This document shows, piece after piece, positions 13,644-51,179 of a DNA stretch of 64,000 bases; position 1 is the first letter of the stretch, and each line of letters begins with the position of its first letter. A model generated the notes under the pieces. That model had not been told where the DNA came from and did no database searches. It saw only the letters and a program-made list of their open reading frames with translations. Location of the stretch: the NCBI GenBank assembly GCA_019057475.1, contig DXJO01000038.1, positions 1 through 64,000 of the forward strand. Direction: 5' to 3'. Both the position numbers and the translations under genes were made by a program. The stretch comes from Candidatus Thorarchaeota archaeon. GTDB taxonomy: Archaea; Asgardarchaeota; Thorarchaeia; Thorarchaeales; Thorarchaeaceae.

Positions 13644-14972
13644 CCGTTGCCCGAAACTTGCACAATCTTGGACATCAATGTCCTTGACTGATGTTCGGTT
13701 CCTGATTCATTAAGGTCTGCTCTGCAGATCCTGCTGGCTCTGCGACAAGTCTTACGTCCTCTCCACAGGCGTTTTCTGTCTCCGTCCAACTGGCGGCGAC
13801 AAGATTACATGCAGCGTTCAGATCGCGGTCCATCTCCAACCCGCACTCTTCACAGACGTAGACTCTGTCTGATAAGCTTAGGTCTTTCTTGATATTCCCG
13901 CAGGCTGAACATCTCTTCGATGACGGGTAGAATCTTGGGGCAACGACAAGTTCAGAACCGTACCAATCACACTTGTACTGCAGTTGTCTTCTGAACTCGT
14001 GGAAACCCACATCAGCAATCACTCGGGACAGTTTCCTGTTCTTCAGCATCCCCGAGACACACAGGTCCTCAATCACTATCTGACCGTGGTTCTTGGCCAG
14101 ATACGTCGTGATCTTGTGTAGTGTGTCTTGTTGGATATTGAAGACTCTTAGATGCAATCTAGCAAGTCCAAGTCTTGCTCTCCCCCTGTTCTTGCTCCCT
14201 CTCTTCTTTCGTGATAGGCTCTTGGATAGTAGCCTCAGCTTTCTCAGTTTCGTTTCCAGGACACGCGGATTGGAATACATGGTTCCATCAGAGAGTGTGG
14301 CCAGAGTCTTGACACCAAGGTCCACTCCTACAGGTCCACCACTTGGAGATTCAGGGCTATCCATCTCCATCTCAACGGTCACTGATACATACCATCTGTC
14401 AGCTCTTCTTGTCACGGTGGCCGACAGCACCCTTCCTTTGAAGTAAATCTCTCTCTTCTCCTTGAGCCTGATTCTTCCTAGTCGTGGTAATTGAATCATT
14501 CGACCAACAAATCGGATGGTGCCAGTGAGTCTGAAACTGTCATGTACACCCCGCTTCTTGAACCTGGGAAATCCTACTCCTTTCCCGGACTTCAATCCCC
14601 GATAGAAGTTCTTGAAGGCTCTGTCAAGGTTTCTCAGGGCCTCCTGTGGGGCACACTTGGAGGCCTCGTACATCCACGGGAAGACCGTTCTCTTCAGTCG
14701 GTTCAGTTCCCTGTGCTGTGCAATAGCACTGGTAAAACGATCTTTGTCCTGATTCTGACGGTAGAGTGTGATTCTCTGCTGCAGACCCCAGTTGTAAGCA
14801 AAACGCGCACACCCGGCATGTTGAGAGAGTCTGGTCTTCAGTTGGTTGTTTGGGTCCAGTTCATATTTGAAGGCCCTAGCAATCAGCATTGAACATCCAC
14901 ACTACTCAATCCTGAGCGGCATGTTTTAACCACCTACAAACTGTTCAAGATTGTCCAAGTTCTTGGCAGCTG
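13644..14972 (-). mobile_element. non-autonomous IS607-type element carrying only tnpB
   Basis: 31-bp imperfect inverted end repeats at 13644-13674 and 14942-14972 (24/31). The right end reads AAGTTTCGGGCAACGG, like IS607 ends. No tnpA. Confidence 0.7.
13675..14889 (-). CDS. tnpB: RNA-guided endonuclease TnpB (canonical RuvC)
   Basis: HTH_OrfB N terminus (HAGCARFAYNWGL), GVDLG, IVIEDL, CSACG...CEECG, DRDLNAACNL. Confidence 0.95.
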   Translation of the reverse strand: MLIARAFKYELDPNNQLKTRLSQHAGCARFAYNWGLQQRITLYRQNQDKDRFTSAIAQHRELNRLKRTVFPWMYEASKCAPQEALRNLDRAFKNFYRGLKSGKGVGFPRFKKRGVHDSFRLTGTIRFVGRMIQLPRLGRIRLKEKREIYFKGRVLSATVTRRADRWYVSVTVEMEMDSPESPSGGPVGVDLGVKTLATLSDGTMYSNPRVLETKLRKLRLLSKSLSRKKRGSKNRGRARLGLARLHLRVFNIQQDTLHKITTYLAKNHGQIVIEDLCVSGMLKNRKLSRVIADVGFHEFRRQLQYKCDWYGSELVVAPRFYPSSKRCSACGNIKKDLSLSDRVYVCEECGLEMDRDLNAACNLVAASWTETENACGEDVRLVAEPAGSAEQTLMNQEPNISQGH

Positions 14973-34462: not shown

Positions 34463-34564
34463 GATGTCACCAACTCAGTTCTTACTGTGCTGTGGACTCT
34501 CGTGCCTTTTGATATGAAGTCCCTAAGAGCCTACCGCTGTTCTGGTTGGAGTTTCATAGGAAGG

Positions 34565-34843
34565 AGGGGAGGCTTACCCCGAAAGCCCGGAGGAATGCTC
34601 GTCATTCTAAACGGAAATCCTCACGGCCCCAGAGCTTGTCAGGCTCGAAAGGGTCATCCGTGGCTGAGTACTGTGAACAGGCGACTCTCGAGTCGTTTGA
34701 GAGTGCTACCGATCCCGCCATGGCAAAAACCGCGGAAACACCGTCTGCCGCCATCGACGCTCTAAAGGCCTCTGACAGTCATGGCAAAGCAGTGCAGCGG
34801 ACTGAAGCTCAGTCTGGAAAGAGGGATAATGTTCCTGTGAAGT
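34565..34843 (+). repeat. orphan copy of the tnpB 3' region (direct repeat of 47876-48155)
   Basis: ~280 bp, about 90% identical by eye, same orientation; the 34546-34875 ORF reproduces the TnpB C-terminal tail. Confidence 0.92.
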
Positions 34844-35209: not shown

Positions 35210-35437
35210 CTTGCTACTTCTCCATAACTCTTAGATCCGTTGATGGCATCTTGAGTGGAATCTAACTGAAACGCCAAGATATGACACCAATAAGGGATAT
35301 TTATGCTTCCTTTGTTAGTCAGAACTAGGCCAATCGTTGTCTGTGTAATTAAGAAATTACTTGGCAGGCACAAACCAGCCGCCATACGATCATTTCAATT
35401 GACTGATTTACAATGCCTCTTAGAGATATGAACATCA

Positions 35438-36268
35438 TCATTTCTTCTTCTTGACGAGCCGGCCCTTCTCGTCCATTACTCCTTTTATGATTCCTATGAT
35501 TCGAAGCAGCATAATCACAGCTGCGTTTGCATTTTTCCTAATCGAAATCATCTTCTTCTTAGTGACGAAATCTACGACGCTATGCGCTGACTCATTTCCT
35601 TTCCTTCGAAGGCCCTTGATAGAAGCCAGATGGTTTTTCGTGAAACCATACTTCACATAGTCACCAGATATCTGCTCGAAGTTTAGAACTAAGGATTTTA
35701 GGGGGAGAAAACGGTTCGTACCATCATCAAAATACATCTTATGTTGATTCGTCGGTTCATACTTAAAGCGTAGAATATCAATTACTAGATTCTCCACCAG
35801 CTTTCTCAGCATGACACGTGCAGAGGAAAATGCTTCGTACTCAAAGCAGGTGTTAATCTCATCGATTAGCAAACTGTATACCTTGTCAACTCTATACACG
35901 TTTTCAATGTCTATGAAGTCAGGTTGCGAAGGCATCTTCCGGCTAGGTACACTAGTTTCCGCTTTTTCTCCGGGCAAATACATTTGTCCGGGAACTACCA
36001 TTGGGATTTCTTGGGCTAGATCCTTGAACTTCTGTGCAGAACGTTTCCTCATCACGAAGACCATAGTTTCTTTCTTGCATAATGGACATTCGACTCTGCA
36101 AATTCCTTTCTGTATATCCTCACCTGACCGACCTATTTTCATCTGGAATTTGCTGTACTCTTCCGGTTTGAAGTAGAATGCATACCACCCATGCTTGTCA
36201 AAAGCCAGTCGGAGATTCCTACCACAGTCTTCAGTTTGACAGACGATAGGAATGACTACTCCGCTCAT
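35438..36268 (-). CDS. Zn-finger + HEPN/DUF4145-like protein
   Basis: N-terminal CxxxxC and CPLC; EINTCF...MLRKLVENL...LRRKGNESAH. Confidence 0.7.
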   Translation of the reverse strand: MSGVVIPIVCQTEDCGRNLRLAFDKHGWYAFYFKPEEYSKFQMKIGRSGEDIQKGICRVECPLCKKETMVFVMRKRSAQKFKDLAQEIPMVVPGQMYLPGEKAETSVPSRKMPSQPDFIDIENVYRVDKVYSLLIDEINTCFEYEAFSSARVMLRKLVENLVIDILRFKYEPTNQHKMYFDDGTNRFLPLKSLVLNFEQISGDYVKYGFTKNHLASIKGLRRKGNESAHSVVDFVTKKKMISIRKNANAAVIMLLRIIGIIKGVMDEKGRLVKKKK

Positions 36269-36322
36269 GCAATATCACCACAGACAGACAACATCAGCTC
36301 GAATACAACTGCTCGTGTCCAT

Positions 36323-36755
36323 CTACACTGCGGAGTCCATCTTCTTTTCACACTTAAAAATGACTTCTCCTGCCATTTGAAGTGCCCAACAAATCCTATC
36401 AGGCCTGATCGCGTAGTTGTCACCTTCTTTCTCGAATCCGTCAGCGAGGCCTTCCTGTTTACTTGAAAGATATGTCGCAAGAGAGTCAGGATTAATCATC
36501 AATACATTCTGCAACTCATCTTTCGACATCCCTTGAGGATACTGTAACATCAATGCGCATACAATCTTCTGCTTTGCAGTAGCAGTTCCCTCGGGGAACG
36601 AGATTGCAGTCGCATATTGGTCCGATGCCAACATATGTCGCAACCTTGAGCTTAGTTAATCCAATCTCAATTTCTATCAATGCATCCGACCAATTTTCAA
36701 ATTCGCCGACTTGCAGTTCGTAGTTATTATAGAATGCTGAGAACGTCCGCTTCAT
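36323..36755 (-). pseudogene. frameshifted paralogue of 37808-38302 (wHTH family)
   Basis: ORF 36516-36755 (LQVG..NWSDA) matches the N half and ORF 36323-36643 the C half of the 37808 protein; frame change near 36620-36645. Confidence 0.65.
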
Positions 36756-37007
36756 TTTGACAGTACCTCCTACATCAGTGCACTACCCCATTTCCTCCAT
36801 TTTAATCTGGCGTATCGTGATGACTACATCATTAACTTGGGAATCCTTCGAGCAAGAAACATCATAGTGAATTGTGAAACGGTGGAGTCGCTTAACATAA
36901 TTACTACTCATGCAAAGATTAGTTGTTATAAACCCGGTCCACTAATGATGGGCGATAATCAAATATCGGTCTTCTTCATTTAATTAGCCTGACTCTGATA
37001 ATATAAC

Positions 37008-37562
37008 TTGGGTTCTCCTGCGAAGGTGATTAAGCGTATGGAAGAGATTGAAACTAAGGGGGTTATGCTGGAAAGAACTGTACGAAACACGATCGTGCGC
37101 ATCACTGCAAAGAACGGCGAATCTCTTGATGAAGCATACAATAGGCTCGCCGAAATATGCCAGAGTATTGAGGATACTGAAGCAGCCAAAGAGCGCGAGA
37201 AGTGGACTGAGGATATGCACCCAGAGGTGGAAGAAGCCACATCAAAAGTAGAGGCTCTCCTTGGTTTGGATGCCAATGAGAGAAGAGGAGTAAGCCTAAC
37301 AGATGAGTATCACATGGTTATACTGTCACTGCTAATGCATTTTGACGAGTGCAAGGGTTCCGTTTCCATCGCCAAGGAATGGAATATTAACAGCGGCAGA
37401 GTTTCACGAGTCTTCACAGCGTCGCGCAAGAAGCATGAGAAGTACAAGGGGCATTTCGAGAAATGCAAGATGGGAGGTTACCGTTTCACTAGAGAAGGCC
37501 TAAATCACGCATTGGAATATGGGGTGTCCGCGATATTGGGCGAAGAGAGTGATGTCGGCTAG
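37008..37562 (+). CDS. island wHTH-family paralogue
   Basis: LDEAYNRLAEI N-domain; VILSLL...WNINSGRVSR...FEKCKMGGYRFTREGL. Confidence 0.75.
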   Translation: MGSPAKVIKRMEEIETKGVMLERTVRNTIVRITAKNGESLDEAYNRLAEICQSIEDTEAAKEREKWTEDMHPEVEEATSKVEALLGLDANERRGVSLTDEYHMVILSLLMHFDECKGSVSIAKEWNINSGRVSRVFTASRKKHEKYKGHFEKCKMGGYRFTREGLNHALEYGVSAILGEESDVG

Positions 37563-37807
37563 CAAGCTCTAGTTTCGTGAGTAGGTCATTTCCCGATTAG
37601 ATGTCGGAAGCAAATAGTTCGCGTTTCTTCATACCTAAATTGGAGTGTTAAGCATTCAATCTGGTTTCAGAGTCATGCTGCCTAGGATCCCCCATTGACA
37701 TCTCCTCTCATTCGATACCAACAAAGCTAATGCTGATGATTTGATGAAAAAGATTTAGTATAGGTTCGGTACTCTCAGCCAACGCGCAAGCAAAGGACCA
37801 TGGTAGT

Positions 37808-38302
37808 ATGACAAAGGAAGAGGAATCTATAGATGACAGTGGGGACTGGGTAGAGCTGCAGATCAAGCATGGCAATACCATACTGTCAGTGGGTGGACAC
37901 AACTGGTCTGACGCCATAGCAAAGGCAGCTCTTGGAAAGATGAAATGCAGAATTGCTGCAGTTGCAGGTTACGCAACAGAGTACAGTTCGGAGCTGAAAC
38001 AGTGGGTCATTGTGTTTGGAGAACCCATAGGCCAAATCAAGAGTCGAATTGCACTAGCGTTGCTGTTAGCTTTTCCAGAAAGGCTCTCAAGGGAGGAGTT
38101 GGTGAAGATGGTCGACATCAAGCCAAATCGGATTAGGGAGTATCTTACCAACACGAAAAAAGGCGTCAAACCCCACGTAGACGAAAACAAGAAGTCCGGC
38201 ATTATTCTGAATACCAAGGGCTACTCATGGGCGGTTGGGATTCTGGAATCAATTGAAGAAGCTAGATCCCACGAATCGAAAGGTGATGATATTGAGCAGT
38301 GA
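37808..38302 (+). CDS. island wHTH-family paralogue (variant N-domain)
   Basis: RIALALLLAFPERLSREEL...IREYLT...LNTKGYSWA. Confidence 0.75.
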   Translation: MTKEEESIDDSGDWVELQIKHGNTILSVGGHNWSDAIAKAALGKMKCRIAAVAGYATEYSSELKQWVIVFGEPIGQIKSRIALALLLAFPERLSREELVKMVDIKPNRIREYLTNTKKGVKPHVDENKKSGIILNTKGYSWAVGILESIEEARSHESKGDDIEQ

Positions 38303-38765
38303 TCAGACAGATTTGAAGATTCGATTGAGTAGAACGATGAATAACATCCAGATTGAAGTCTGGCTAAGCAGCGAAGATGAGTTCAGAGAAGGCTATGCGC
38401 TTCTCAGACGACTCTGCGAAAGGGCAGAATTTGAGGAACTCAGACTAGACCTGGGTCAATTTAGAGTCAGAGATGATGAAGGACACAGAATAGCTGAGCA
38501 AGTTACTGAGGGTACGCACAGAGTAGCTCTATCACTCCTTGATAGTTGGCCAGATTCCAAGAGAGTCACCGACATTCAAGTTGAAACCGGACTATCACAG
38601 GGACACGTTTCGAATATACTCGAGGGCCGTCGAGGCGACGTGGGACACTGGTTCGAGAAGGAGAGAGATCTCTGGAAGCTATCACCCATTGGAGTGAGAG
38701 CCATTGTCGAAGAGGTCGTTCCAGCCCTGTTTGAGCAACAACGTTCTGGAGGGGGAACTCAATGA
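38286..38765 (+). CDS. island wHTH-family paralogue
   Basis: HRVALSLLDSWP...ETGLSQGHVSNIL...WFEK..WKLSPIG; start likely 38286 or 38292. Confidence 0.75.
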   Translation: MILSSDQTDLKIRLSRTMNNIQIEVWLSSEDEFREGYALLRRLCERAEFEELRLDLGQFRVRDDEGHRIAEQVTEGTHRVALSLLDSWPDSKRVTDIQVETGLSQGHVSNILEGRRGDVGHWFEKERDLWKLSPIGVRAIVEEVVPALFEQQRSGGGTQ

Positions 38766-39286
38766 ACGCCAACGAAGAACAGGAGTTGACAGTCGAGATT
38801 GAGAAGTCTAGGAGCGGCACGAAGATTCGAGTTGTGGGAATATCCGCAAGTACGGACGAAGCGCAATTCGATCAAGCATACAAACTAGCGGATGAACTTT
38901 ATAGGAGAATCGAAACACTCGACCTTGAAATTGAATCGGAAAACAAAATCCAACAGGCCAAGAATCAAGTTTCTCATCTTTGGGTTCAAGAGGAAAACAA
39001 ATGGAAACTCTCCGCTTCTGTTACGGAGGCATCACACCGAATCGCACTGTCACTCCTTAGAAGCTATCCGAAGTGCATAACTCAAGCAGATGTAATCAGA
39101 GAAACAAACATAGCTCAGAAGACTGTCAGCAATCATCTAGGAGGACGAAAAAAGGAGGTTCGCATATATTTCTCGAAATGTGATGGCGGTTATCAACTAA
39201 GCCAAGATGGACTCAATTGGACCATCACGAAGGTCATTCCCAAGGCCATTGGCCAAGAGATGCCGAATGAAAGGAAAGAGGAATAG
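38762..39286 (+). CDS. island wHTH-family paralogue
   Basis: FDQAYKLADEL; HRIALSLLRSYP...ETNIAQKTVSNHL...YFSKCDGGYQLSQDGL. Confidence 0.78.
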   Translation: MNANEEQELTVEIEKSRSGTKIRVVGISASTDEAQFDQAYKLADELYRRIETLDLEIESENKIQQAKNQVSHLWVQEENKWKLSASVTEASHRIALSLLRSYPKCITQADVIRETNIAQKTVSNHLGGRKKEVRIYFSKCDGGYQLSQDGLNWTITKVIPKAIGQEMPNERKEE

Positions 39287-39289
39287 TTA

Positions 39290-40264
39290 ATGACTGATTC
39301 CGACAAACAAACCTTCTTGATCAGGAAGAAATCAGCAGGACTGGAAATCGAAACACGAGTTGATGAGAAGAATCTCGATAATGCATACCTAAAATTGGAG
39401 GAATTATGGGCACATTTCAGTCAATTGGATGAAGAGTTGGAACCCAAACGAAAAATTCGCGATCTAGTGAAAGAATGTCAGAAGTACTGGGTTCGGAAAG
39501 ATGGGAAACGGTACCTAGCGAAGGACGTTGCTTCTGTATCTCATCGAGTCGGACTATCTGTGCTCGATGGGGGCAACAAAGGAAAGAGCCTGAAGGCCAT
39601 TGCCGACGAAACCGGGTTGTCTTCACCCCTTGCGCGGTATCACCTAACTGACGCCAAGGGAGCATCAGGGTGGTGCTTACAAGATGAAAAAAGACATTGG
39701 AAACTAACACCGGAGGGATTGGAGCACGTTACAAACATAGTAATTCCGTATTTACAGGGCCGTCACGGAAATGAACTCCACATGATTCTGAAATGGATGA
39801 ATAACAGAATATACAAGGGTCAGTTTGATAGCTGGATACTCGGCAAGGTCCAAGGAAAGGTGGACAAAACCAACTTCTTGGAATATGCCGTTGGATTGCT
39901 CCTATCAGCTTTAGGTTTCCTAGTATACCAAGTGGGCATGTATAACGATAGATTCGATATCGTTGCCTGTCCGCCAGATGGGTCTATCATGCTGGTATGT
40001 GACTGTACAACAGGTTCAGTCAGAAAGAAGTCATCGGGTCTCAGCATAGTCGTGGAAGAACTCAGGACCGAATTTCCAGAGATGCACGTAGAGGGTGTTG
40101 TTTTCACAACGGAAAGAATTAGTAAGACTGATCGAAAGGATTTGCTTAGCGACAAGATTGGGATTGTTGATGCAACTCAGATCAAGGAACTCCTCAAGCT
40201 AGCAAAATCCGATCGAAATCCCGAGCTGTTGTTTGATGTCATGAGGAAGAAGGAAACGCGATAG
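39290..40264 (+). CDS. wHTH-family paralogue fused to restriction-endonuclease-like (Mrr-cat/PD-(D/E)xK) domain
   Basis: LDNAYLKLEEL, HRVGLSVL..ETGL, WKLTPEGL; then FLEYAVGLLLSALGF...FDIVA...LVCDCTTG...GVVFTT...IGIVD. Confidence 0.72.
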   Translation: MTDSDKQTFLIRKKSAGLEIETRVDEKNLDNAYLKLEELWAHFSQLDEELEPKRKIRDLVKECQKYWVRKDGKRYLAKDVASVSHRVGLSVLDGGNKGKSLKAIADETGLSSPLARYHLTDAKGASGWCLQDEKRHWKLTPEGLEHVTNIVIPYLQGRHGNELHMILKWMNNRIYKGQFDSWILGKVQGKVDKTNFLEYAVGLLLSALGFLVYQVGMYNDRFDIVACPPDGSIMLVCDCTTGSVRKKSSGLSIVVEELRTEFPEMHVEGVVFTTERISKTDRKDLLSDKIGIVDATQIKELLKLAKSDRNPELLFDVMRKKETR

Positions 40265-40319
40265 CTATTCTATGCCCAAACGCTCCATAAACAGCTTTGG
40301 TTACTCACTCTTGCATTGT

Positions 40320-41204
40320 TCACTCACTTGGGCGCAGGACAGAACTCATGTATTCCCTTACTCTCTCCGTTTCGAAGAAGTAGTACAATCCATCATCTGA
40401 TAAACGGAAACCTCTCTTGCATTTTGAGAAGTATTGAGAGTGGTCATGCTGTATCCCCGTTATGATTCGGGAAATGGATGACTTAACCAGACCAGTTTCC
40501 AAGGCGATTTCTTGCAGAGTCCTGCAATCGGGGTACGCTCTAAGGAGTGAAACCATAATCTTGTAAGGGGGCTTTGACTCTTCGGACTTTCTGCCAAGAG
40601 CTTCAAGCGAGCCATCATTTACATAGATAGACCAGTGACCGTCTTCCCTGCGCCAGAGATTAGTAGTCCCCTGTTTTGCACGCTTAATCATTTCATCGAA
40701 CTCTTCAGTTACATAGTCAATGGATTGAACCGGATGTTTCTCTGGAAGGGCATTGAGGACACGCAGAATCTGGTCCTGAACCTTCCGTGGGCTCTTCACA
40801 GATGTGGAATTCCCAAAAATTCTCTTGTATTCGATGACGTAGTAGCTTTTAGTGTCGAAAGGAAGTTCTCTTATCTTTTGAGTGAGTAGAATAAATGGCT
40901 TGCTCAAACCCCATGCAAGACCTAACTCTAGGAAGACATTCGGATTCGAGCCTGACAGGTCAGCAATAATCGCCCTAGATTCTTGTATGTTGGCACATAT
41001 CTTGCACCAAATCTCGGGTTTGCTCAAGTCGGAATCGGCTCTATGAACAGTCCAACCTGGCAAAGATTTCAGAACATCGTGAAATAGGCTCTGGGGCGCC
41101 TCCTTCTCTCGAAAGGGCATAAGCACAAACAGTTTGCGTGGATCATACTTCACGTTGACACCACACCGCTCGTAGTTCTTCGGGCATATGATTGGTATAC
41201 TCAT
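40320..41204 (-). CDS. nucleoside-deoxyribosyltransferase/TIR-like domain fused to island wHTH
   Basis: FVLMPF, RAD, IIADLSGSNPNVFLELGLAWG, LPFD; C-terminal VSLLRAYP..ETGL..YFSKCKRGFRLSDDGL. Confidence 0.78.
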   Translation of the reverse strand: MSIPIICPKNYERCGVNVKYDPRKLFVLMPFREKEAPQSLFHDVLKSLPGWTVHRADSDLSKPEIWCKICANIQESRAIIADLSGSNPNVFLELGLAWGLSKPFILLTQKIRELPFDTKSYYVIEYKRIFGNSTSVKSPRKVQDQILRVLNALPEKHPVQSIDYVTEEFDEMIKRAKQGTTNLWRREDGHWSIYVNDGSLEALGRKSEESKPPYKIMVSLLRAYPDCRTLQEIALETGLVKSSISRIITGIQHDHSQYFSKCKRGFRLSDDGLYYFFETERVREYMSSVLRPSE

Positions 41205-41294: not shown

Positions 41295-44200
41295 TCAATG
41301 AGTGACACTTCCTAGAAGATGCTCAATCTTGGAGATGAGTCCATCATAGTTTTCTATCCTCTCCTTTGCTTCCTCATCACTTCCGAAGTACGACTCCACA
41401 ATCTCTTGAATCAGGCTTTCAGCATGGTCAAGTGTTCTAGCAACCCCGCTCTGAGGAGGTGTTGTCGCAAGGATCCAGTTGTACACCTGTTCCCCTGTCT
41501 TGTTGGATCTAGCACTAAGCTGAATTTCTGACTTGAACTTGAGCACAGTACAGACCAACTTCTCTTCGTCCATCTCAAGATAGCTGCCAGCCCGGATTGC
41601 CCTCAGGCCTAGTTCTCTCACGATTCGTCGACTCTCTCTGAACACCATGCCCTCTCTAGTCGTGGGGTCTGGAACGAACTCAAACGCGAACTCGCACCAT
41701 GCATTTCCGAGAAATGCACCTCCTGCCAACATCATTGCAGATATCTCTGAGTCGTCAAGTCCAGTCTTGGTCAGTCCAGATAGGCTGGTATCCTTGTCCC
41801 CATCCGAGAGCTCTACGCGCCAGCATGCACCATGACACTCCATTTCTCCGCTGGCTATGGGACATAGCTCCTCGTCGTGAGTCACAACCAGCGTTTGATG
41901 AGCGACCTCTCGGCTCGTGAGGTCCTCTGCGGTTGATGGCAGGGTCGTGCGAAAGCGGACGTACGGAGTCCTCTGCTCTACGTAGGGCCTCAGAATCTCC
42001 AGTGCATCATAATCAATGTCATCATAGGGGTTCCATGTCAGATAGGTTTCTGTGTCTTTCAGACTCTGCAGTGGAAGACCATCGACTATTGGACGTCGAA
42101 GCAGCGCGAGGAGCTCAGACGTGTGCTGGATGGACCAGCTCTCGATCAATTCGTTTCCATCAGCTCTATTGAACTCAATCGTGTAGTGGTCGTCATCCAC
42201 GTCCAGTGTGCATTTCGTCGAAACACAAAGGCTGAGTGACTCCGATATATCCTCAAGTACTCCTTGCACTCTCTTCCCTAGTGCCCGCGGAAATCGAAAC
42301 CATTCCGGCAGTAGTGGGAAGTCCTGTTCAGGCATTGTTGTGATCTGAAGTCCGCGGATGCCAGCAAGCGTTTCTCCTCTCCTCCTTATCGTGGTGAGCT
42401 TGCCCAGAGGCGTCCAATTCTCTTCATCGCGAAACCAGAAGTAATCTCCCCCGGCGGACCTATGCACGATTACGTCGTACGTGGCAGTTGCACCTACATG
42501 CTTAGACAAGCACAACGCAATCTCATCCTGACGGATTGCAGTCCAGCTTACTGTTTGCTTGGGCACAAATGGTTCGCATCCAATCCATACCCCAATCAGC
42601 ATTTTCCGACGGTCGTAGGGGTTCTCTATCGCCAAGCAATACTCCGGAGTTTCGTGCTCTTCTGACAGCACCAGAATCTGACCGTAGCTCACAGTACTCA
42701 GTTCAGGAACGTTCAGTGAGGTCATGGCTTTAGCCCGTTTCGCAAGTCCTGACCACACAGCTCTCAGATCGAGTCTAGGTGTGACCTCTTCTGACTCAGA
42801 GTTCATAAGGACGAATCCCATCTGCATGATTTGCCAAGACTTGAGAATCCTCCATAGCTCCGATAAATGCCTGTCAGCCAAAGTTGGGAACTCCCTAGTG
42901 AGCCCCAAGAGCAACAGGAAGAGGTAGTTGCCAAGAGAAACGGACAGGTACGGTCGCACACTGAGAAGATCCAGCAGCATCTCCCTGTCCTGTGCTCTCA
43001 GTCCCTCTACCAACCGGCTATCTCGAACCCACTGGAGCGTCGCCCATACTGGCTCAGAAACCGGACTCGTCTGCAAAAATCTCACGATGTCATCAAGCGC
43101 CTCGATGTGACCCTGTTTTCCATCGCCAATCGAAATCAATTCATCGAGCTCATCGAGGAACTGCGACCAGCTCGACCCGTCCTTCTCATGTCCCACTTGC
43201 CGAAGGATCCTGACGGCCTGACGAAGCCGCCTGAGTTCAAGCCGCGTGGCTCTCTCGATATCATGGCCAAAGCGCAGAGTGGCCTCTATGGGAGGTCTGT
43301 AGATACTCGCGCCCGTGCACTCTCGATTACTGTCCTTCCTGTAGGCACGTTGATGTGTGATGCTGTTCCTTGGCAGCAACGCAACACTCTCAACGAATGC
43401 TCTCCCGTGTCCCACTGTCTGCATTCTTGTCCTGTATTTCAGAAAAGGAGCTCCAGAAGGCCTGCTCTTCGAGCCATATTCAGACAGTGGCACGACATGA
43501 ATTTGCCGTCCCCCAGTATCATCCGCTTTCTGTACAATGCTCTCTGACAGATACTGCTTCAACTGAGGCACGAGCTCGATGGAGTCCCGAAAGAAATCAT
43601 CTTGCATCTCTGAATTGTGCATGACATCAGCAGACCGAATCACCGTTCGTCCTCTTTCTCCTTCTTGAGCGGATGAAACTGATGCTCGCCTTGGCTCATT
43701 CCAGAACCTTGGAGACCAGTTGTGAAGCGGTAGTACCTCTACCATGTTGAAAGAGATACCATCAATGTCCTGTCTTATGATGACTCTGAGGTCATCGAAC
43801 GCAGATGTCAACTGGCCTGATGCATACGGTCGCACGGGGAGATTCCATACGATCTCTGTGACGAAGCGGTTGAGTTCGGAACCTTGGAAGAACGGCTCCA
43901 TTGTCCTTCTCTGATAGGATGCTGAAGTACCTTCTGAGTTTCTAGGCCTGTCAAACCAGACTACCGTACAACCTGCCTCATTCAACTCAGCCGCGATTAT
44001 GCGTCGCAGCTCATAGAGTGCCGGCCGTAGTCGTTTTGGTGTGCAGTCATCCAGTACATCCCAGCCACTGACCACAACAACCCTACCATCTAGAGCATCC
44101 CATTCCTCTCCCACGAGCTTTGCTATCGACAGGTCCCCGATTCCTCTGAAGAGGAAGTCCTGTATAGCTGACGAGGCATCGCTGAACATGACTGCGCGGA

Positions 44201-46235
44201 AGAACTCGCGCATGTGGTCACTGCCTTGATCTGACCTGAGTCTAGTCCTAGCCAAAGACTCGGCTCCAAAGTCACCTGCCAAGTCCAACCACAGCATTTC
44301 AGAGTGATCATTCTCCTGTTGGAGGCCGTGGATGAGCTCAAGTCCGTGCCAGTACTTGGCTATCCAAGCAGCAGAGGGCCCTGATCTAGACGCGGAGTTC
44401 ACACTCAGATAGAGAATGAAGCGGCCTCTCGCCTTACCATTCTCCTCTAGTGGGCTGCGTTGCTCAACACCCCACAAAGGCCAGCCCTTTTTCCCAATCT
44501 GTTTCAACTGGTCAGCAGCTATGCCATGCACGATGATAGCAAGTTTCAGCCAATCCCGGGTTCCGTCATTCAAGACAACTCCCACTGGTCTGCTGAGATG
44601 CTCTTTGAGAAGGACTGAGGCGTTCTCACACAGAGCTCGCGTGAGTCGCCATAGTCTGGGACGTACCACAGAGGAGTCCTGCGAAGTGTCAAGGACCACA
44701 GTACCGGTCAGAGGCCGCACCACTGAACGGTCCTCTGTGATTCTCACATACTCCGTAGCAAGACCTTCGGCATAGGCCTCGAGCTGTTTCATGCCGTACC
44801 CCGTTGGCGTTCCGGCAACAGACGCATTCCACTCGGCGTTCGTGAGCCCGCGCTTTCTGAGAACAAACTTGGGAATAACCTTCTGTCCGTGTTTCTTGGA
44901 ATCCTTCTTCTCAGCTTTAATCTCCCAATTGAAAGCAGTCTTGCTCTTGATGTCAAAGACAGCCACGGGTATCCATACGGTCAGTTTGCCCGGCACTCTC
45001 GGGTTCTGAATCACATGACGTCTGAACATCACGAGATCCGCCCGCCCCTTCCCTAGGGAGGTTTCCACAGGGATTTCTGCTGCAAGGAGCCACTGGTCAC
45101 CCTCCTCCACCCAACGGTCACCGTTGAAGACCACCGACTCCAAGTCGTATGGCTGGACGAGTCCGTTAGTCATCAACCTGTGCCATCTGATGCCGTGCCA
45201 TCTCGCCCTCCGCATAACTTCCTTTTGTAGCCACTCACCGTCCTCATCCCGAAGGATGCCACGTTCGCATAGGTCCTTGAGGAAGTCCGCCCAGGCCTGA
45301 CGAATCTCACTCTCGGAGGCTTCCTCTTCCGGATACCTCAACTGCGTGACCTGGTCCAGGAAGAATGAAAGGTCCCACCTAGCCCTCGACTCCTCAATGG
45401 ACTGTGTCAGTGATGGCGCCCGCCCATAGTGTGTCCCGTAAAACGCCTCGATCTCCTGGACTATCTCTCGGAGAATCCAGTTCGCGTCAAGCTGTTCACT
45501 ATCCCTCCGCCCACTTCTTCTCGAACGCTTGAACCCCCGCTTCCCGCTCTCCTTCGAGGTGTAGAGATACTCGAGGAACGGTGACAGCCGCCATATCAGC
45601 AGGCCAACATACCTGCGCGCGTTGTTCATCGGCACGTCGTTGATGAAGCACTTACGACACAGTTCGAAGATGTGGGCTCTCAGCATGTCCCCGAAGTCCA
45701 GCTCCGCAAGGACAGTGTGAGCCACCTCAACCCATGGATAGTCGCTCCCGCCTTCGTACCCTGCAATCCACCTCTTGCCGCGTCGACCTGCTGTCTTTGG
45801 CTCTGGAAACGGAAACCTTGTCACGACCCAGTTCCTCAGTTGTGCGCCAGCCATGTTCAGTAGTCTGTTGAGCGGCCCAATCCTCCCCTTCCTCTCGTTC
45901 TGTATCCGCTTGTACTCCCTGTTGCCGTAGCGCGCGGTGGTTTCCCAGATCATCTTGTTGAAGTTGCGACGCATGTGTTTCTCGACGTTTGTAATGTGAG
46001 AAAAGTCGGGTTTGCCACCGCGTCTGCTCGCGCGCCACTTGCTCAGTGCTTCGGTCCACTGCCTTTGAGTGCTGGCATAGACATCCTCGATGCTCTTGAT
46101 CGTGCGCTCGCGGAAGAGGTCACGCAGTGCCGAAAGACCGTTGAGGTACGCGCGAGCTATGGCCTGCGCTGGGTCGTGGGGGTATGGCCTCTGTTCACTC
46201 TCCTTGAGGTTATCCATCGCGGGCACGCGTATCAC
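41295..46235 (-). CDS. 1646-aa multidomain protein with PD-(D/E)xK nuclease-like domain
   Basis: Uninterrupted 4.9-kb ORF; EIPV...GRADLV...FDIKSK...QLEAYA. Confidence 0.75.
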   Translation of the reverse strand: MIRVPAMDNLKESEQRPYPHDPAQAIARAYLNGLSALRDLFRERTIKSIEDVYASTQRQWTEALSKWRASRRGGKPDFSHITNVEKHMRRNFNKMIWETTARYGNREYKRIQNERKGRIGPLNRLLNMAGAQLRNWVVTRFPFPEPKTAGRRGKRWIAGYEGGSDYPWVEVAHTVLAELDFGDMLRAHIFELCRKCFINDVPMNNARRYVGLLIWRLSPFLEYLYTSKESGKRGFKRSRRSGRRDSEQLDANWILREIVQEIEAFYGTHYGRAPSLTQSIEESRARWDLSFFLDQVTQLRYPEEEASESEIRQAWADFLKDLCERGILRDEDGEWLQKEVMRRARWHGIRWHRLMTNGLVQPYDLESVVFNGDRWVEEGDQWLLAAEIPVETSLGKGRADLVMFRRHVIQNPRVPGKLTVWIPVAVFDIKSKTAFNWEIKAEKKDSKKHGQKVIPKFVLRKRGLTNAEWNASVAGTPTGYGMKQLEAYAEGLATEYVRITEDRSVVRPLTGTVVLDTSQDSSVVRPRLWRLTRALCENASVLLKEHLSRPVGVVLNDGTRDWLKLAIIVHGIAADQLKQIGKKGWPLWGVEQRSPLEENGKARGRFILYLSVNSASRSGPSAAWIAKYWHGLELIHGLQQENDHSEMLWLDLAGDFGAESLARTRLRSDQGSDHMREFFRAVMFSDASSAIQDFLFRGIGDLSIAKLVGEEWDALDGRVVVVSGWDVLDDCTPKRLRPALYELRRIIAAELNEAGCTVVWFDRPRNSEGTSASYQRRTMEPFFQGSELNRFVTEIVWNLPVRPYASGQLTSAFDDLRVIIRQDIDGISFNMVEVLPLHNWSPRFWNEPRRASVSSAQEGERGRTVIRSADVMHNSEMQDDFFRDSIELVPQLKQYLSESIVQKADDTGGRQIHVVPLSEYGSKSRPSGAPFLKYRTRMQTVGHGRAFVESVALLPRNSITHQRAYRKDSNRECTGASIYRPPIEATLRFGHDIERATRLELRRLRQAVRILRQVGHEKDGSSWSQFLDELDELISIGDGKQGHIEALDDIVRFLQTSPVSEPVWATLQWVRDSRLVEGLRAQDREMLLDLLSVRPYLSVSLGNYLFLLLLGLTREFPTLADRHLSELWRILKSWQIMQMGFVLMNSESEEVTPRLDLRAVWSGLAKRAKAMTSLNVPELSTVSYGQILVLSEEHETPEYCLAIENPYDRRKMLIGVWIGCEPFVPKQTVSWTAIRQDEIALCLSKHVGATATYDVIVHRSAGGDYFWFRDEENWTPLGKLTTIRRRGETLAGIRGLQITTMPEQDFPLLPEWFRFPRALGKRVQGVLEDISESLSLCVSTKCTLDVDDDHYTIEFNRADGNELIESWSIQHTSELLALLRRPIVDGLPLQSLKDTETYLTWNPYDDIDYDALEILRPYVEQRTPYVRFRTTLPSTAEDLTSREVAHQTLVVTHDEELCPIASGEMECHGACWRVELSDGDKDTSLSGLTKTGLDDSEISAMMLAGGAFLGNAWCEFAFEFVPDPTTREGMVFRESRRIVRELGLRAIRAGSYLEMDEEKLVCTVLKFKSEIQLSARSNKTGEQVYNWILATTPPQSGVARTLDHAESLIQEIVESYFGSDEEAKERIENYDGLISKIEHLLGSVTH

Positions 46236-46483
46236 TCGGGCATTTTGTAGGGTTATAGCCTAATAAAAGCGCGGTCTTTTCTCATTCTTTCCTCTTACTC
46301 TGGCTTGAAATCTTCGAAGTTAGAACCCGAACAGGTTCCTTTATTCAAATAATCTTCATAGATTTATATGATGTCAGTAGTAAGAAAGTGTGGAGGTTAT
46401 CACCCGACTTCCGTAGAAAGATGTTGAGTGAAAACCCTCTGACCAGAAACAGGTCGGAGATTTATATGGTACGGTGAACTTGA

Positions 46484-48280
46484 GTGGGTCTCTCCAAGGG
46501 AATAGTAACAAGTGTCAAGGTCCCGATTCGTTGGGACTCTATGACCAAACGGCAGCAAACTCGCCTTTCCCGAATCACAAGCCGGGATACTAGGGTGATT
46601 CGTGCCTTCCTTGGAGTGATTGCACGTCACGAGAAAGAACTTCTTGTCGGTAAGAAAAAGAAGAAGATCAGCGGTGCAAAGCTTGAGAAGCTGACCCTGA
46701 CTGCTACAAGATTCAAAGACGCATCTAAGAACCGAACCACAGTTCCCCACGACTTCAAGAAACGATTCCCGAACATATCGCTGAATGAGCTTCAGGAGTG
46801 CAGACAGGTGGCCGCTGCAATGTGGCAGAGCTATCTCGAACTTGGGGGCAAGCCTCCTCTCCATACTCATGGTTACAGGCCGCGCAAGCTGCCTCGGTAC
46901 ATCTATACTCGAAGGTTCAAGATAGTCTATACTCCTGAGAAAGAGATCAAGCACTGGCTCAGGCTGATGGACTCCCTCGACTCTGAAAAGACAGAGGGAC
47001 GATATCATGACTATCTGATGGTTCCTCTCAATCCCTCTTCCTATCATCTGAATAGGATCAACGAGGGCAAGGTGACGTCACTTCGGCTTCTGAAAGATAC
47101 CCGGAAGAAGTGGTGGGTGGTGTTCGCTGTACGCGTGGATGTCCCCGCGGTTGACAACAGCTCGAAGCCACCAGCAGTGACAGGCATAGACCTAGGGATC
47201 AACAAGGCAGTCTGTTCGGTAGTCTTGACTCAGACTCGTGTCAGGTTCGTGGGATACTTCACGCAGCCTGAGAAGGTCAAGCGAATCAAGCGGTACGATG
47301 AGATGGTCGACTCTCTTCAGAGAGAGATGAACACCAGACTCAACAACGGGCAGTCAGCAGATGGAGTCATCCAAAGACTTCGCGAGCTGAGCGGGCGACG
47401 TAACCGAATCAGTATCGACCACGACCGGGTGCTTGTCAGGCGGCTCACTGACCACATCTTGAAGTTGTCAAAGAAGTACGACCTGTACGTGGCGATTGGC
47501 AAACTGACCGGGATTCGGAAGAGTGCCAACAGGGACAGCAAGAAACCGAAGGCATTCCGGGCGATGGTCGGACGGTGGTCTTTTGCAAGAGTCACCAATG
47601 CGTTGAGGCAGAAGCTGTCCGAGAGCGGCTGGAAAGTCAGTGGTCGTGATTCCCGATTCATTCCGGTCCGCGAGTACTGGACTAGCCGAGTCTGTTCCAA
47701 GTGTGGGCACATTGGAATACGCCCGAAGCAGTCTGTCTTCATCTGCCATACCTGCGGTCACAAGACCAATGCCGACAAGAACGGCGCCATCAATATCGCA
47801 AGGCGCCTCATTATGCTCATTCCTTCACTGAAGGATGAGAAAAGACTAGGGAGTTGGCTTCATCCTCACGAAAGAGAGGGGTGGCTTACCCCGAAAGCCC
47901 GGAGGAACGCTCGCCGTTCTAAAGGGAAGTCCTCACGGCCCCAGAGCTTGTCAGGCTCGAAAGGGTCGTCCGTGGCTGAGTACAATGAGCAAGCGACTCT
48001 CGAGTCGTTTGTGAGTGCTACCGATCCCGCCATGGTAAAAACCGCGAAAAAACCGTCTGCCGCCATCGACGCTCTAAAGGCCTCTGACAGTCATGGCAAA
48101 GCAGTGCAGCGGACTGAAGCTCAGTCTGGAAAGAGGAACGATGTTCCCTTGAAGTCTAGCGAAGCCCGTGTCATAGCGTCGGCGTGGAACCCGATGTATG
48201 CTGGCGACAGTCGTCACGGGAAGGGTGGAACGCGTGGGTTGAAGGTTACCGAGGGTGTTCACTCACTTTCTGAAACTTGA
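46484..48280 (+). CDS. tnpB: large TnpB/Cas12f-like RNA-guided nuclease with rearranged RuvC-II
   Basis: GIDLGI (RuvC-I), VAIGKL in place of ExL, VREYWTS, CSKCG..CHTCG, ADKNGAINIA (RuvC-III); ~150-aa low-complexity tail. Confidence 0.88.
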   Translation: MGLSKGIVTSVKVPIRWDSMTKRQQTRLSRITSRDTRVIRAFLGVIARHEKELLVGKKKKKISGAKLEKLTLTATRFKDASKNRTTVPHDFKKRFPNISLNELQECRQVAAAMWQSYLELGGKPPLHTHGYRPRKLPRYIYTRRFKIVYTPEKEIKHWLRLMDSLDSEKTEGRYHDYLMVPLNPSSYHLNRINEGKVTSLRLLKDTRKKWWVVFAVRVDVPAVDNSSKPPAVTGIDLGINKAVCSVVLTQTRVRFVGYFTQPEKVKRIKRYDEMVDSLQREMNTRLNNGQSADGVIQRLRELSGRRNRISIDHDRVLVRRLTDHILKLSKKYDLYVAIGKLTGIRKSANRDSKKPKAFRAMVGRWSFARVTNALRQKLSESGWKVSGRDSRFIPVREYWTSRVCSKCGHIGIRPKQSVFICHTCGHKTNADKNGAINIARRLIMLIPSLKDEKRLGSWLHPHEREGWLTPKARRNARRSKGKSSRPQSLSGSKGSSVAEYNEQATLESFVSATDPAMVKTAKKPSAAIDALKASDSHGKAVQRTEAQSGKRNDVPLKSSEARVIASAWNPMYAGDSRHGKGGTRGLKVTEGVHSLSET

Positions 48281-48598
48281 AACAGGCCGGTGCATGCAGC
48301 CGATCGTATCTCCCGTGAGGAATCAAAGTGAAGCAGTTAGTGATTCTCACAAGTACTCGCTATGTAGGTAGCCCAAAGTCATCGCCTTTCCTCCTCTCGG
48401 AGTGCTCTGCTTCGGTACCACTCCTAGCGGCTGAAATGAAGGTTTCTCCCTTAATGTGTCCACGGTAACAGTTCACTTTCCGAGTGGTCCAATCATTAGA
48501 ATCAGTTTACCTTTAACAGCTACCGAATTCACATCTGAAGAATTATATGTCATGCTGAATCGACTCCACCAGCGCTCTGCGCCAGCAAGTGATTTAGA

Positions 48599-49052: not shown

Positions 49053-49463
49053 CTAATATCTTCTGACATCAATTCCGACTATTTTCTCATAGTGACGGTC
49101 TTGAGTGATGATTGTGGAGCATCCATTTGTGAAGGCAATTGCGGCAGTCAGACAGTCATTGACACCTATTGGCTTGCCAGATCTCTCCAATTCTGTGTAG
49201 ATTCTGCTGGCACGGTCTGCAGCCTCAACGTCAAGATTCCAGATAGTGATTCTGGAGAGTAGCCTTCTAACAGCCTGTTCTTCGGAAGGGATTCGTCCTC
49301 TGACATCACATCCTCTGAATAGCTCGAATGCATTCACACTTGTACTGGCAAAATGGAAGCCCTCCGACTTGAGCCTGAGATACTGTTCTTGAGCCTTGTC
49401 GACCCCTCTCAGGAAATCGATAAGGAACGCAGTATCAAGGCATGCAAATGTCAATGTGACCAA
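49053..49463 (-). CDS. vapC: VapC PIN-domain toxin
   Basis: LDTAFLIDFLRG, FEL..G, DCLTAAIA, ITQDRHY. Confidence 0.92.
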   Translation of the reverse strand: MVTLTFACLDTAFLIDFLRGVDKAQEQYLRLKSEGFHFASTSVNAFELFRGCDVRGRIPSEEQAVRRLLSRITIWNLDVEAADRASRIYTELERSGKPIGVNDCLTAAIAFTNGCSTIITQDRHYEKIVGIDVRRY

Positions 49464-49663
49464 GCACCCCAGATCTCATCGAGGTCCTCGAATAGGCTTT
49501 CTCTCTCTTCATCGCTCATTGATAATATCCCAAAGAGGTCCGAGATATCGTCAACAGGACCTAGGAGCCGCAAAACGACATCACTGAAGGACTCTCTCTC
49601 TCTTTTCACTCTGCGAAGACGGTCGTAAGCCTTGTCGCTTAATGAGATATTCTTGTAACCCAT
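49451..49663 (-). CDS. vapB: VapB-type antitoxin
   Basis: KNISLSDKAYDRL..VK.ERESFSDVVLRLL; overlaps the vapC start. Confidence 0.88.
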   Translation of the reverse strand: MGYKNISLSDKAYDRLRRVKRERESFSDVVLRLLGPVDDISDLFGILSMSDEERESLFEDLDEIWGAWSH

Positions 49664-49776
49664 GGCAATCATCTGTGTATTCATACACAGAAACACAGAT
49701 AAATGCCGCGACTTGCACCCTAGTGCGGAGGTTGTTCCGCTATTCTGGATGCGCATCACTTTTCGCAATACAATGT

Positions 49777-50139
49777 ATGTACGCTGCAGCGGACCTAGCG
49801 GGCACGATGAAGTTACAGTACGATGTCACGTGTCGGCTAATCCGTATGCCCTGCACCGCGCGCCTGGACATCAACTTTATTCTGAAGGCCTTGCAGGAGG
49901 GGGCGGACGGCGTGCTGATTGTCGGTTGTCATCCCGGAGACTGCGCGTACAAGACGGGGAACCTGGGGGCAGAGCGACGCGTCAGATTCGCAAGGAAGCT
50001 GATTGGCCAACTGGGCCTGAACGAGGGCCGAGTGAAGATGGTGTTCGTGAGTGCGGCGGAGGGCGACCTGTTCGCGAGGGAGGTCAACGATTTCGCTGAC
50101 GAGATCAGGGCGATAGGACCTAACCCTATTAGGCTCTAA
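49777..50139 (+). pseudogene. mvhD: 5'-truncated second mvhD copy
   Basis: Near-identical to 48650-49009 but lacks the first 17 codons, including the CxxC ligands. Confidence 0.8.
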
Positions 50140-51085: not shown

Positions 51086-51120
51086 AGGCACCTTGAAAAT
51101 CCACTCTGTAAGGAAACGAC

Positions 51121-51179
51121 AGGTCAATGACTTCACTGACGAGATCAGGGCGATAGGGCCGAACCCGATAAGACTCTGA
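51121..51179 (+). repeat. third copy of the mvhD 3' end (59 bp)
   Basis: AGGTCAATGACTTCACTGACGAGATCAGGGCGATAGGGCCGAACCCGATAAGACTCTGA = VNDFTDEIRAIGPNPIRL*. Confidence 0.88.

Follow-up and report, generated by a model that had tools for sequence, protein, structure and literature searches.

Rearrangement of the RuvC-II site has been published for two major clades and eight large branches of TnpB (Altae-Tran et al., PMC10691335), and the rearranged prokaryotic clades are also described in PMC10530073, where E467 of the mimivirus Fanzor2 (ApmFz2) was found to be essential for cleavage and the RuvC cut of TvTnpB was placed at +21/22. Fanzors are recognized by a DPG at RuvC-I together with an alternative Glu, and the pro-Fanzors are mostly cyanobacterial IS607 TnpBs (Yoon et al., PMC10711439). 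Closest in setting are the Cas1H-Asgard-1 and -2 groups (Altae-Tran et al. 2023, PMC10691335), in which an Asgard host, a Cas1-like neighbor, a downstream GTTCACTCA motif and flanking inverted repeats are combined and two TnpB groups share one partner family; the variable region before GTTCACTCA was proposed as a possible guide and the Cas1-like protein (aCas1) as a transposase, and these elements have so far been listed without guide, target or function. In phages, free-standing and collaborative homing endonucleases (PMC13565253) are encoded beside, not inside, a conserved target gene, their own allele is immune through sequence change or an intron, and neighboring genes are co-converted.

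We compared with these systems a locus on a 64,000-nucleotide stretch of DNA (the window) from Thorarchaeota, an Asgard lineage, as the original prediction had supposed. The open reading frame at 46484-48280 (plus strand, 598 codons) was confirmed. By motif alignment and predicted model, its nuclease core of ~465 aa (46484..47878) contains GIDLG (D236, 47189-91), YVAIGKL (G339, 47498-500), VREYWTS (E397, 47672-74), a C4 zinc finger (C404/407/421/424, 47693-47755) and ADKNGA (D431, 47774-76). The active site proposed earlier, with both RuvC-I and RuvC-III Asp intact, Gly in place of the canonical RuvC-II Glu and a substitute Glu in VREYWTS, was found in full, and in an alignment of Thorarchaeota homologs D236, G339, E397, D431 and the four zinc cysteines were invariant (121/121 sequences), with RuvC-I reading DLG in 120/121 and DFG in 1/121. 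The spacing from G339 to E397 is 58 aa, against the 'about 50 aa' first given. In ApmFz2, G416 and E467 occupy the aligned positions of G339 and E397, the alternative Glu stands six residues before the zinc finger (first CxxC) in both proteins, and E397 comes directly after strand 392-396 in the predicted model. By its motifs TnpB is therefore RuvC-II-rearranged, with G/P at the canonical Glu and a conserved Glu before the first CxxC. The second TnpB of the window (13675-14889, minus strand) carries the motif IVIEDL, and no Glu precedes its zinc finger, just as had been noted; it is an ordinary IS605-type protein with a canonical active site and matches to PF12323, PF01385 and PF07282.

On the TnpB of interest, PF07282 scored 49.6 bits, above cut-off, and NF040570 scored 90.3 bits, below its cut-off of 100. 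The predicted fold matches the TnpB/Cas12f superfamily over residues 6-465, with 372 residues aligned to AsCas12f, and the atypical N-terminal lobe that had been suggested was not confirmed. Sequence and model together identify the protein as a member of that superfamily, with RuvC I-II-III, a C4 zinc finger and a WED/REC lobe. Cas12f ranked above Fanzor2 in sequence searches and in Foldseek (rank 15), the two were tied in the VIA structural comparison, and the IS607-TnpB profile gave 41.9 bits against a cut-off of 350. The 120 closest homologs come, where a host is named, from Thorarchaeota; matches were found in 18/24 genomes of the host's own family, and the viral contigs searched held distant TnpBs only and no member of this family. 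The G/P-plus-Glu pattern also occurs in most distant relatives found (350-550 aa), including Heimdall- and Odinarchaeia proteins. It is shared with the rearranged clades represented by TnpB2/TvTnpB (PMC10530073), which likewise have the canonical Glu replaced by Gly, an alternative Glu six residues ahead of the zinc finger and D-hydrophobic-G at RuvC-I; the present locus differs from them in having no IS605 tnpA, a scaffold of ~450 nt and guides that are not simply insertion-site flank. The Fanzor-like active site is thus ordinary, and the main interest of the locus lies in its partner gene and its guides.

The partner is an aCas1-type protein of 1646 aa (41295..46235, minus strand), assigned by Cas1-fold model and motif alignment, which is oriented divergently from tnpB, sits 250 bp upstream of it and adjoins tnpB in 36/59 loci with enough upstream DNA. 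Its first 880 residues are confidently modeled (pLDDT 88). Residues ~6-250 are predicted to match the Cas1 catalytic domain, with motif residues E85, H173 and D183, and a PD-(D/E)xK-like motif (E387, D400, K430, QxxxY) lies between this domain and a predicted RecA/KaiC-like fold at ~aa 596-830; the C-terminal half is uncharacterized. Across 44 partners, the putative catalytic residues of both the Cas1 domain and the nuclease motif hardly vary. The top VIA match was Cas1 8flj (Z 12.9, rmsd 3.7, 177 aligned), followed in the list by nine further Cas1 or casposase chains (casposase Z 10.7), a score that is not decisive by itself because the Cas1-like domain is helical. A profile comparison with Cas1 by hhalign was weak (E 0.12), yet it brought the E, N, H and D motifs into register. 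Nothing usable came from searching the partner against Pfam, PDB sequences and Atlas features, and PF01867 (Cas1) had no match in the host genome (G000, 96% complete). Given the Cas1 fold of the adjacent partner and the presence of GTTCACTCA at 48257-48265 (plus strand), which is found downstream of tnpB in most homologous loci, sequence and model place the locus in the published, uncharacterized Cas1H-Asgard (aCas1-TnpB) group of PMC10691335. The aCas1 family also pairs with a second TnpB group of 715-745 aa that has kept the canonical Glu (G000 C53:6986-9283 and C54:171708-173864).

The locus was at first said to have no tnpA or CRISPR array beside it. Both points stand, in that no tnpA is among the recurrent neighbors within 5 kb and there is no regular array; the Cas1-fold partner had been missed, and relatives carry irregular arrays of 2-4 repeat-guide units (the window locus has one unit). 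The recurrent neighbors within 5 kb are aCas1 and mvhD, with no IS607 serine recombinase or eukaryotic transposon setting. Neither a Y1 tnpA nor hairpin ends of the IS200/IS605 kind were found, nor the regular array and canonical Cas1-Cas2 that characterize type V CRISPR.

Where the guide of such an element lies is suggested by the 3' end of the gene. Residues 468-598 have pLDDT <50 and are predicted to be disordered (the tail begins at ~465 in the model). When 12 close loci are compared, the core has identities of about 0.75/0.83/0.45 at codon positions 1/2/3 and the tail 0.74/0.70/0.65, without codon-position periodicity in the latter, and the tnpB stop codon shifts from -108 to +139 nt relative to a fixed motif, a span of ~250 nt. 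Together these features suggest that the tail is an RNA scaffold overlapping the reading frame of a ~465-aa core, so that the 598 aa once taken to mark a large protein include a disordered tail over the guide scaffold. The predicted omega-RNA scaffold (~450 nt; 47840..48290, plus strand), delimited by covariation and the codon test, showed compensatory changes in 34/89 pairs of a structure derived from the same alignment, a number that exceeded 500/500 shuffles and every slid control. Folded as a single sequence, the tail gave no significant result (z -0.9), and stand-alone copies of a paralogous scaffold begin at the same place as the tail scaffold. At its 3' end, beyond GTTCACTCA, the scaffold closes with a repeat end (48279-48290, plus strand) of the form CAGG(T/C)CGG, whose final six bases pair with the scaffold (CCGATC, 48021-48026, with one mismatch in the window copy) and after which the guide comes. 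A structured guide RNA is thus predicted to overlap the 3' end of tnpB. The guide position proposed here, after the CAGGTCGG repeat, is further downstream than the region put forward in PMC10691335.

The 13-nt guide (48291..48303, plus strand) is antisense to codons G-C-M-Q of mvhD as they are written in the alleles of other genomes. It matches such alleles in four other genomes at 13/13 positions, and a metagenome contig carries a perfect 13-nt target with the TAM TACAT; no 16-nt perfect target was found in 86 genomes or the metagenome scan, the known alleles matching over 13 nt only. The resident gene is an intact mvhD (FlpD, PF02662; 48599..49009, plus strand), and its target (minus strand, 48642-48630; TAM 48647-48643) mismatches the guide at positions 6, 9 and 12. 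This self-avoidance is seen throughout the subfamily. mvhD lies directly downstream in 16 loci, at ~110 to 700 bp from tnpB, and, in statistics overstated by the relatedness of the loci, all 25/25 guide-resident pairs had 2-3 mismatches in the first 12 nt, 59/62 of these at wobble positions 6/9/12; none of the 25 had ≤1 mismatch, where the pool of 30 alleles would lead one to expect 9.7, and 22/25 guides matched another genome's mvhD allele over 13-17 nt. One guide of locus L039 tracks a lineage-specific G-C-N-Q variant. Unlike in IS200/IS605 elements, where the guide is the insertion flank, ~110-700 bp lie here between the guide and its target, and the two do not match fully. All targets identified (mvhD, 16S and the element's own promoter) have a TAM ending in AT or AC; searches with most guides of other subgroups found no target. 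Both this type of active site and the pairing of aCas1 with TnpB have been published, and the guides, targets, TAM and leader unit are apparently new: no published account of them was found, Makarova et al. 2020, which may cover more of aCas1, lying outside the search.

The mvhD site has, to judge from its remnants, been broken repeatedly. A 5' stub of the original mvhD (MPLRDMNIII; 35413..35443, plus strand), which retains its leader, is broken in codon 11, corresponding to protospacer ~+14, and forms the left end of an island. From this break it appears that ~13 kb of DNA, comprising cargo, aCas1, tnpB, guide and a new mvhD start, sits inside the guide target. The cargo consists of uncharacterized ORFs at 35438..41204 (two of which had no match when scanned with Pfam, and one, 40320-41204, a sub-threshold match) and of a vapBC toxin-antitoxin pair (49053..49768, minus strand); after vapBC, a 5'-truncated mvhD (49771..50139, plus strand) starts inside the guide target at +2, and a third, shorter mvhD stub lies at 51117-51179. 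With the window included, seven 5' and seven 3' mvhD stubs end inside the protospacer, the six further 5' stubs of relatives ending at +6 to about +18 (one near a contig end) and the six further 3' stubs starting at +4 to +6. Several 5' stubs keep +6 to +12, so that the break lies nearer the TAM than would follow from a cut at +21/22 as in TvTnpB; the partner's nuclease or repair synthesis may have had a share in this. No terminal repeats or target duplication were seen at the island ends. The island lies behind the relic of an older element, a scaffold piece at 34564..34843 (plus strand) that is 93% identical to 47876-48155, and in genome G005 (L031) leader and tnpB follow a left flank shared with this relic. 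The nearby segment 33352-33582 is GC-rich, with internally repeated motifs.

Short guides autoregulate CRISPR systems, as in the case of tracr-L and crRNA-like RNAs, and a second predicted guide in the tnpB leader resembles them. The putative leader RNA (46390..46468, plus strand) contains a stem; its segment 46425-46439 is complementary to the scaffold 3' end, and a repeat hairpin ending in CAGGTCGG (46439-46457) is followed by an 11-nt self-targeting guide (46458-46468) with the same sequence as the tnpB TATA-like box (46360-46370), which stands behind the TAM TTCAT (46355-46359, plus strand). In 48/63 loci the bases after the leader repeat copy the TATA-like box that lies 92-105 nt upstream, after TT(A/C)AT; the match spans 9-17 nt (mode 13, mean 12.6 nt) with a full TAM and involves 34 distinct 11-mers, and a promoter match of ≥10 nt was found in 96% of comparisons within a locus versus 5.8% across loci. 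The leader segment covaries with the scaffold 3' hairpin to which it is complementary (-20.6 vs -16.3 kcal/mol, 0/5000 permutations, kinship being ignored), which suggests that the leader could displace the cis guide much as a crRNA acts on tracrRNA. The promoter target has been lost in 13 loci, in 12/13 of which aCas1 is also gone, and breakpoints fall at this target too, between +7 and +25 when the closest pairs are compared and at +17 where the copy is 94% identical; the joint loss and the breaks suggest that the self guide may sometimes cut. Guide length alone cannot separate binding from cutting, because many mvhD guide matches are no longer than the leader guide. As in TranC/Cas12f systems with split guides, a Cas12f-like fold is present and repeat-guide units could share one scaffold, and as in CRISPR autoregulation a short guide faces the system's own promoter; the differences are that the locus has no regular CRISPR array and no Cas2 and that its crRNA-like unit lies in an mRNA leader.

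Two repeats of this region were considered as traces of transposition. The inverted repeats 46425-46439/48251-48265 are disfavored as transposon ends, because conservation runs past both, aCas1 and the guide fall outside them, and the repeats themselves are part of the predicted RNAs; being internal, in contrast to the flanking repeats described for the Cas1H-Asgard groups, they are better read as RNA-RNA pairing. The direct repeat 46360-46370/46458-46468 is disfavored as a target duplication, because its halves stay identical within loci yet differ across loci (to 44% protein identity); they always follow the TAM in the promoter and the repeat in the leader.

A sister subfamily lies beside the 16S gene; its 1-4 guides are directed at three sites within that gene and at its 3' end. 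Resident 16S genes have hairpin introns of 28-31 nt inside the guide targets, and guides that face intron-less resident sites are either seed-mismatched or only 12 nt long. The host genome's own 16S (G000 C9; L111:3359-3389) carries a 31-nt hairpin intron inside the target of a neighboring TnpB guide; a 10-bp duplication in this 16S was dropped as a candidate, the gene being complete with the intron. Self-matching guides of 13-15 nt to the 16S 3' end are tolerated, which counts against allele-specific homing.

Nevertheless, the sequences as a whole indicate that the locus is probably, though only just so, an allele-specific RNA-guided homing element that has no tnpA and represses itself. We infer a course in which TnpB, once expressed, would load the ~450-nt scaffold with its short guide of 13-17 nt and bind a conserved site in the adjacent gene (mvhD here, the 16S 3' end in the sister group) behind a TAM ending in AT/AC, the resident copy being protected through synonymous recoding or a mini-intron. 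On meeting the DNA of a relative that lacks the element or is recoded in another way, TnpB would break that allele with D236-E397-D431, and repair would copy in the cargo, aCas1, tnpB, the guide and the recoded mvhD promoter with its 5' end; one end would be joined by homology in the target gene and the other by a non-homologous join, in which aCas1 probably helps. Meanwhile, the crRNA-like leader unit would pair with the scaffold 3' end and send TnpB to its own TATA box, mainly repressing transcription. That the protein is probably an active RNA-guided nuclease using the alternative Glu, as originally predicted, is supported by the invariance of the triad, the E397-E467 alignment and the clustering of breaks at guide targets. 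The element would then be analogous to the intronless and collaborative homing of phages (PMC13565253), from which it differs in that exchangeable RNA guides, sometimes in arrays, set specificity, and in being chromosomal, archaeal and accompanied by a Cas1-like partner. If it homes, it represents an RNA-guided gene drive of natural origin in which alleles of conserved host genes are set against each other, which would explain the synonymous recoding at one mvhD site and the tiny 16S introns in Thorarchaeota, and a TnpB with a split crRNA-like guide for autoregulation would mark a step on the path from TnpB to Cas12.

Some of the same observations could be read as RNA-guided integration, which we hold to be possible and a good deal less probable than homing. 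Here TnpB would mainly mark the site by a ~13-nt R-loop, aCas1, as Cas1 integrase plus PD-(D/E)xK nuclease, would cut and join, and self-avoidance would serve as target immunity. The near-invariant Cas1 and nuclease motifs of the 44 partners fit this well, as do the short guide matches (mode 13 nt), the breaks at +2 to +18, which center on the TAM side of where RuvC would cut, and the self-matching 16S 3'-end guides, which adjoin the element's position. It is harder to reconcile with junctions spread over ~16 nt, with island ends devoid of target duplication or terminal repeats and with a tnpB-mvhD distance that varies from ~110 to 700 bp, and binding alone would not need an invariant D-E-D triad. 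In its fullest form, to which we give a similarly low standing, TnpB and the giant Cas1-fold partner would together act as an RNA-guided integrase: they would place islands of several kilobases into particular alleles of conserved genes, write short guides into mini-arrays or exchange them there, and control themselves through the split leader guide. If that were true, DNA insertion would be programmable here by a route with no relation to CAST or bridge recombinases. The guides, TAM and natural targets described here make aCas1-TnpB elements directly testable.

An improbable further reading is that no homing takes place and the nuclease serves retention or competitor killing, destroying the incoming alleles of relatives, or cells or chromosomes that have lost the element, and thereby protecting island and introns. 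It would account for self-avoidance and for guide arrays over several alleles or sites, a toxin-antitoxin pair is among the cargo, and competitor killing by free-standing homing nucleases is noted in PMC13565253; the serial insertions at the target, the stubs on both sides and the older-element relic point instead to repeated invasion of the site. Very unlikely, in our judgment, is a regulator that binds without cutting, both guides repressing (at the own promoter and at foreign mvhD or 16S alleles): the guides are indeed short, the TATA box is a target and TldRs offer a precedent (PMC13565253), but the catalytic triad shows no variation, breaks are concentrated at targets of either kind, and a 3' guide that avoids the host's own gene has little left to regulate. 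Hardly credible is the reading first offered, a solo, lineage-specific nuclease near the origin of Fanzors, since the Gly at RuvC-II and Glu six residues before the zinc finger common to TnpB and ApmFz2, the VIA tie and the Asgard host are outweighed by DLG/DFG in place of DPG in 121/121 homologs, the low IS607-TnpB score and missing serine recombinase in an archaeal host (pro-Fanzors being mostly cyanobacterial IS607 TnpBs, PMC10711439), a rearrangement already known from several prokaryotic TnpB clades, the higher ranking of Cas12f and the presence of a partner gene, so that Fanzor membership was rejected on motif, gene context and search ranking.

Scaffolds also occur apart from tnpB. The host genome G000 contains at least five stand-alone copies, ~445 nt long and 81-92% identical, of the scaffold of the tnpB on contig C42, located on C18 (123298 to end), at three places on C21 and on C34, with pieces on C2, C37, C38 and C40. 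In the copies whose ends are intact (not cut by a contig end) the guides differ, and no nearby targets were found. ARAGORN calls a tRNA-SeC at C42:62504-62594. Two guides at scaffold ends (G000 C54:99307-99375 and C54:75477-75550) resemble the T-loop/acceptor part of tRNAs, with 2-3 mismatches to the resident tRNAs, and so tRNAs are a possible third class of guide target.
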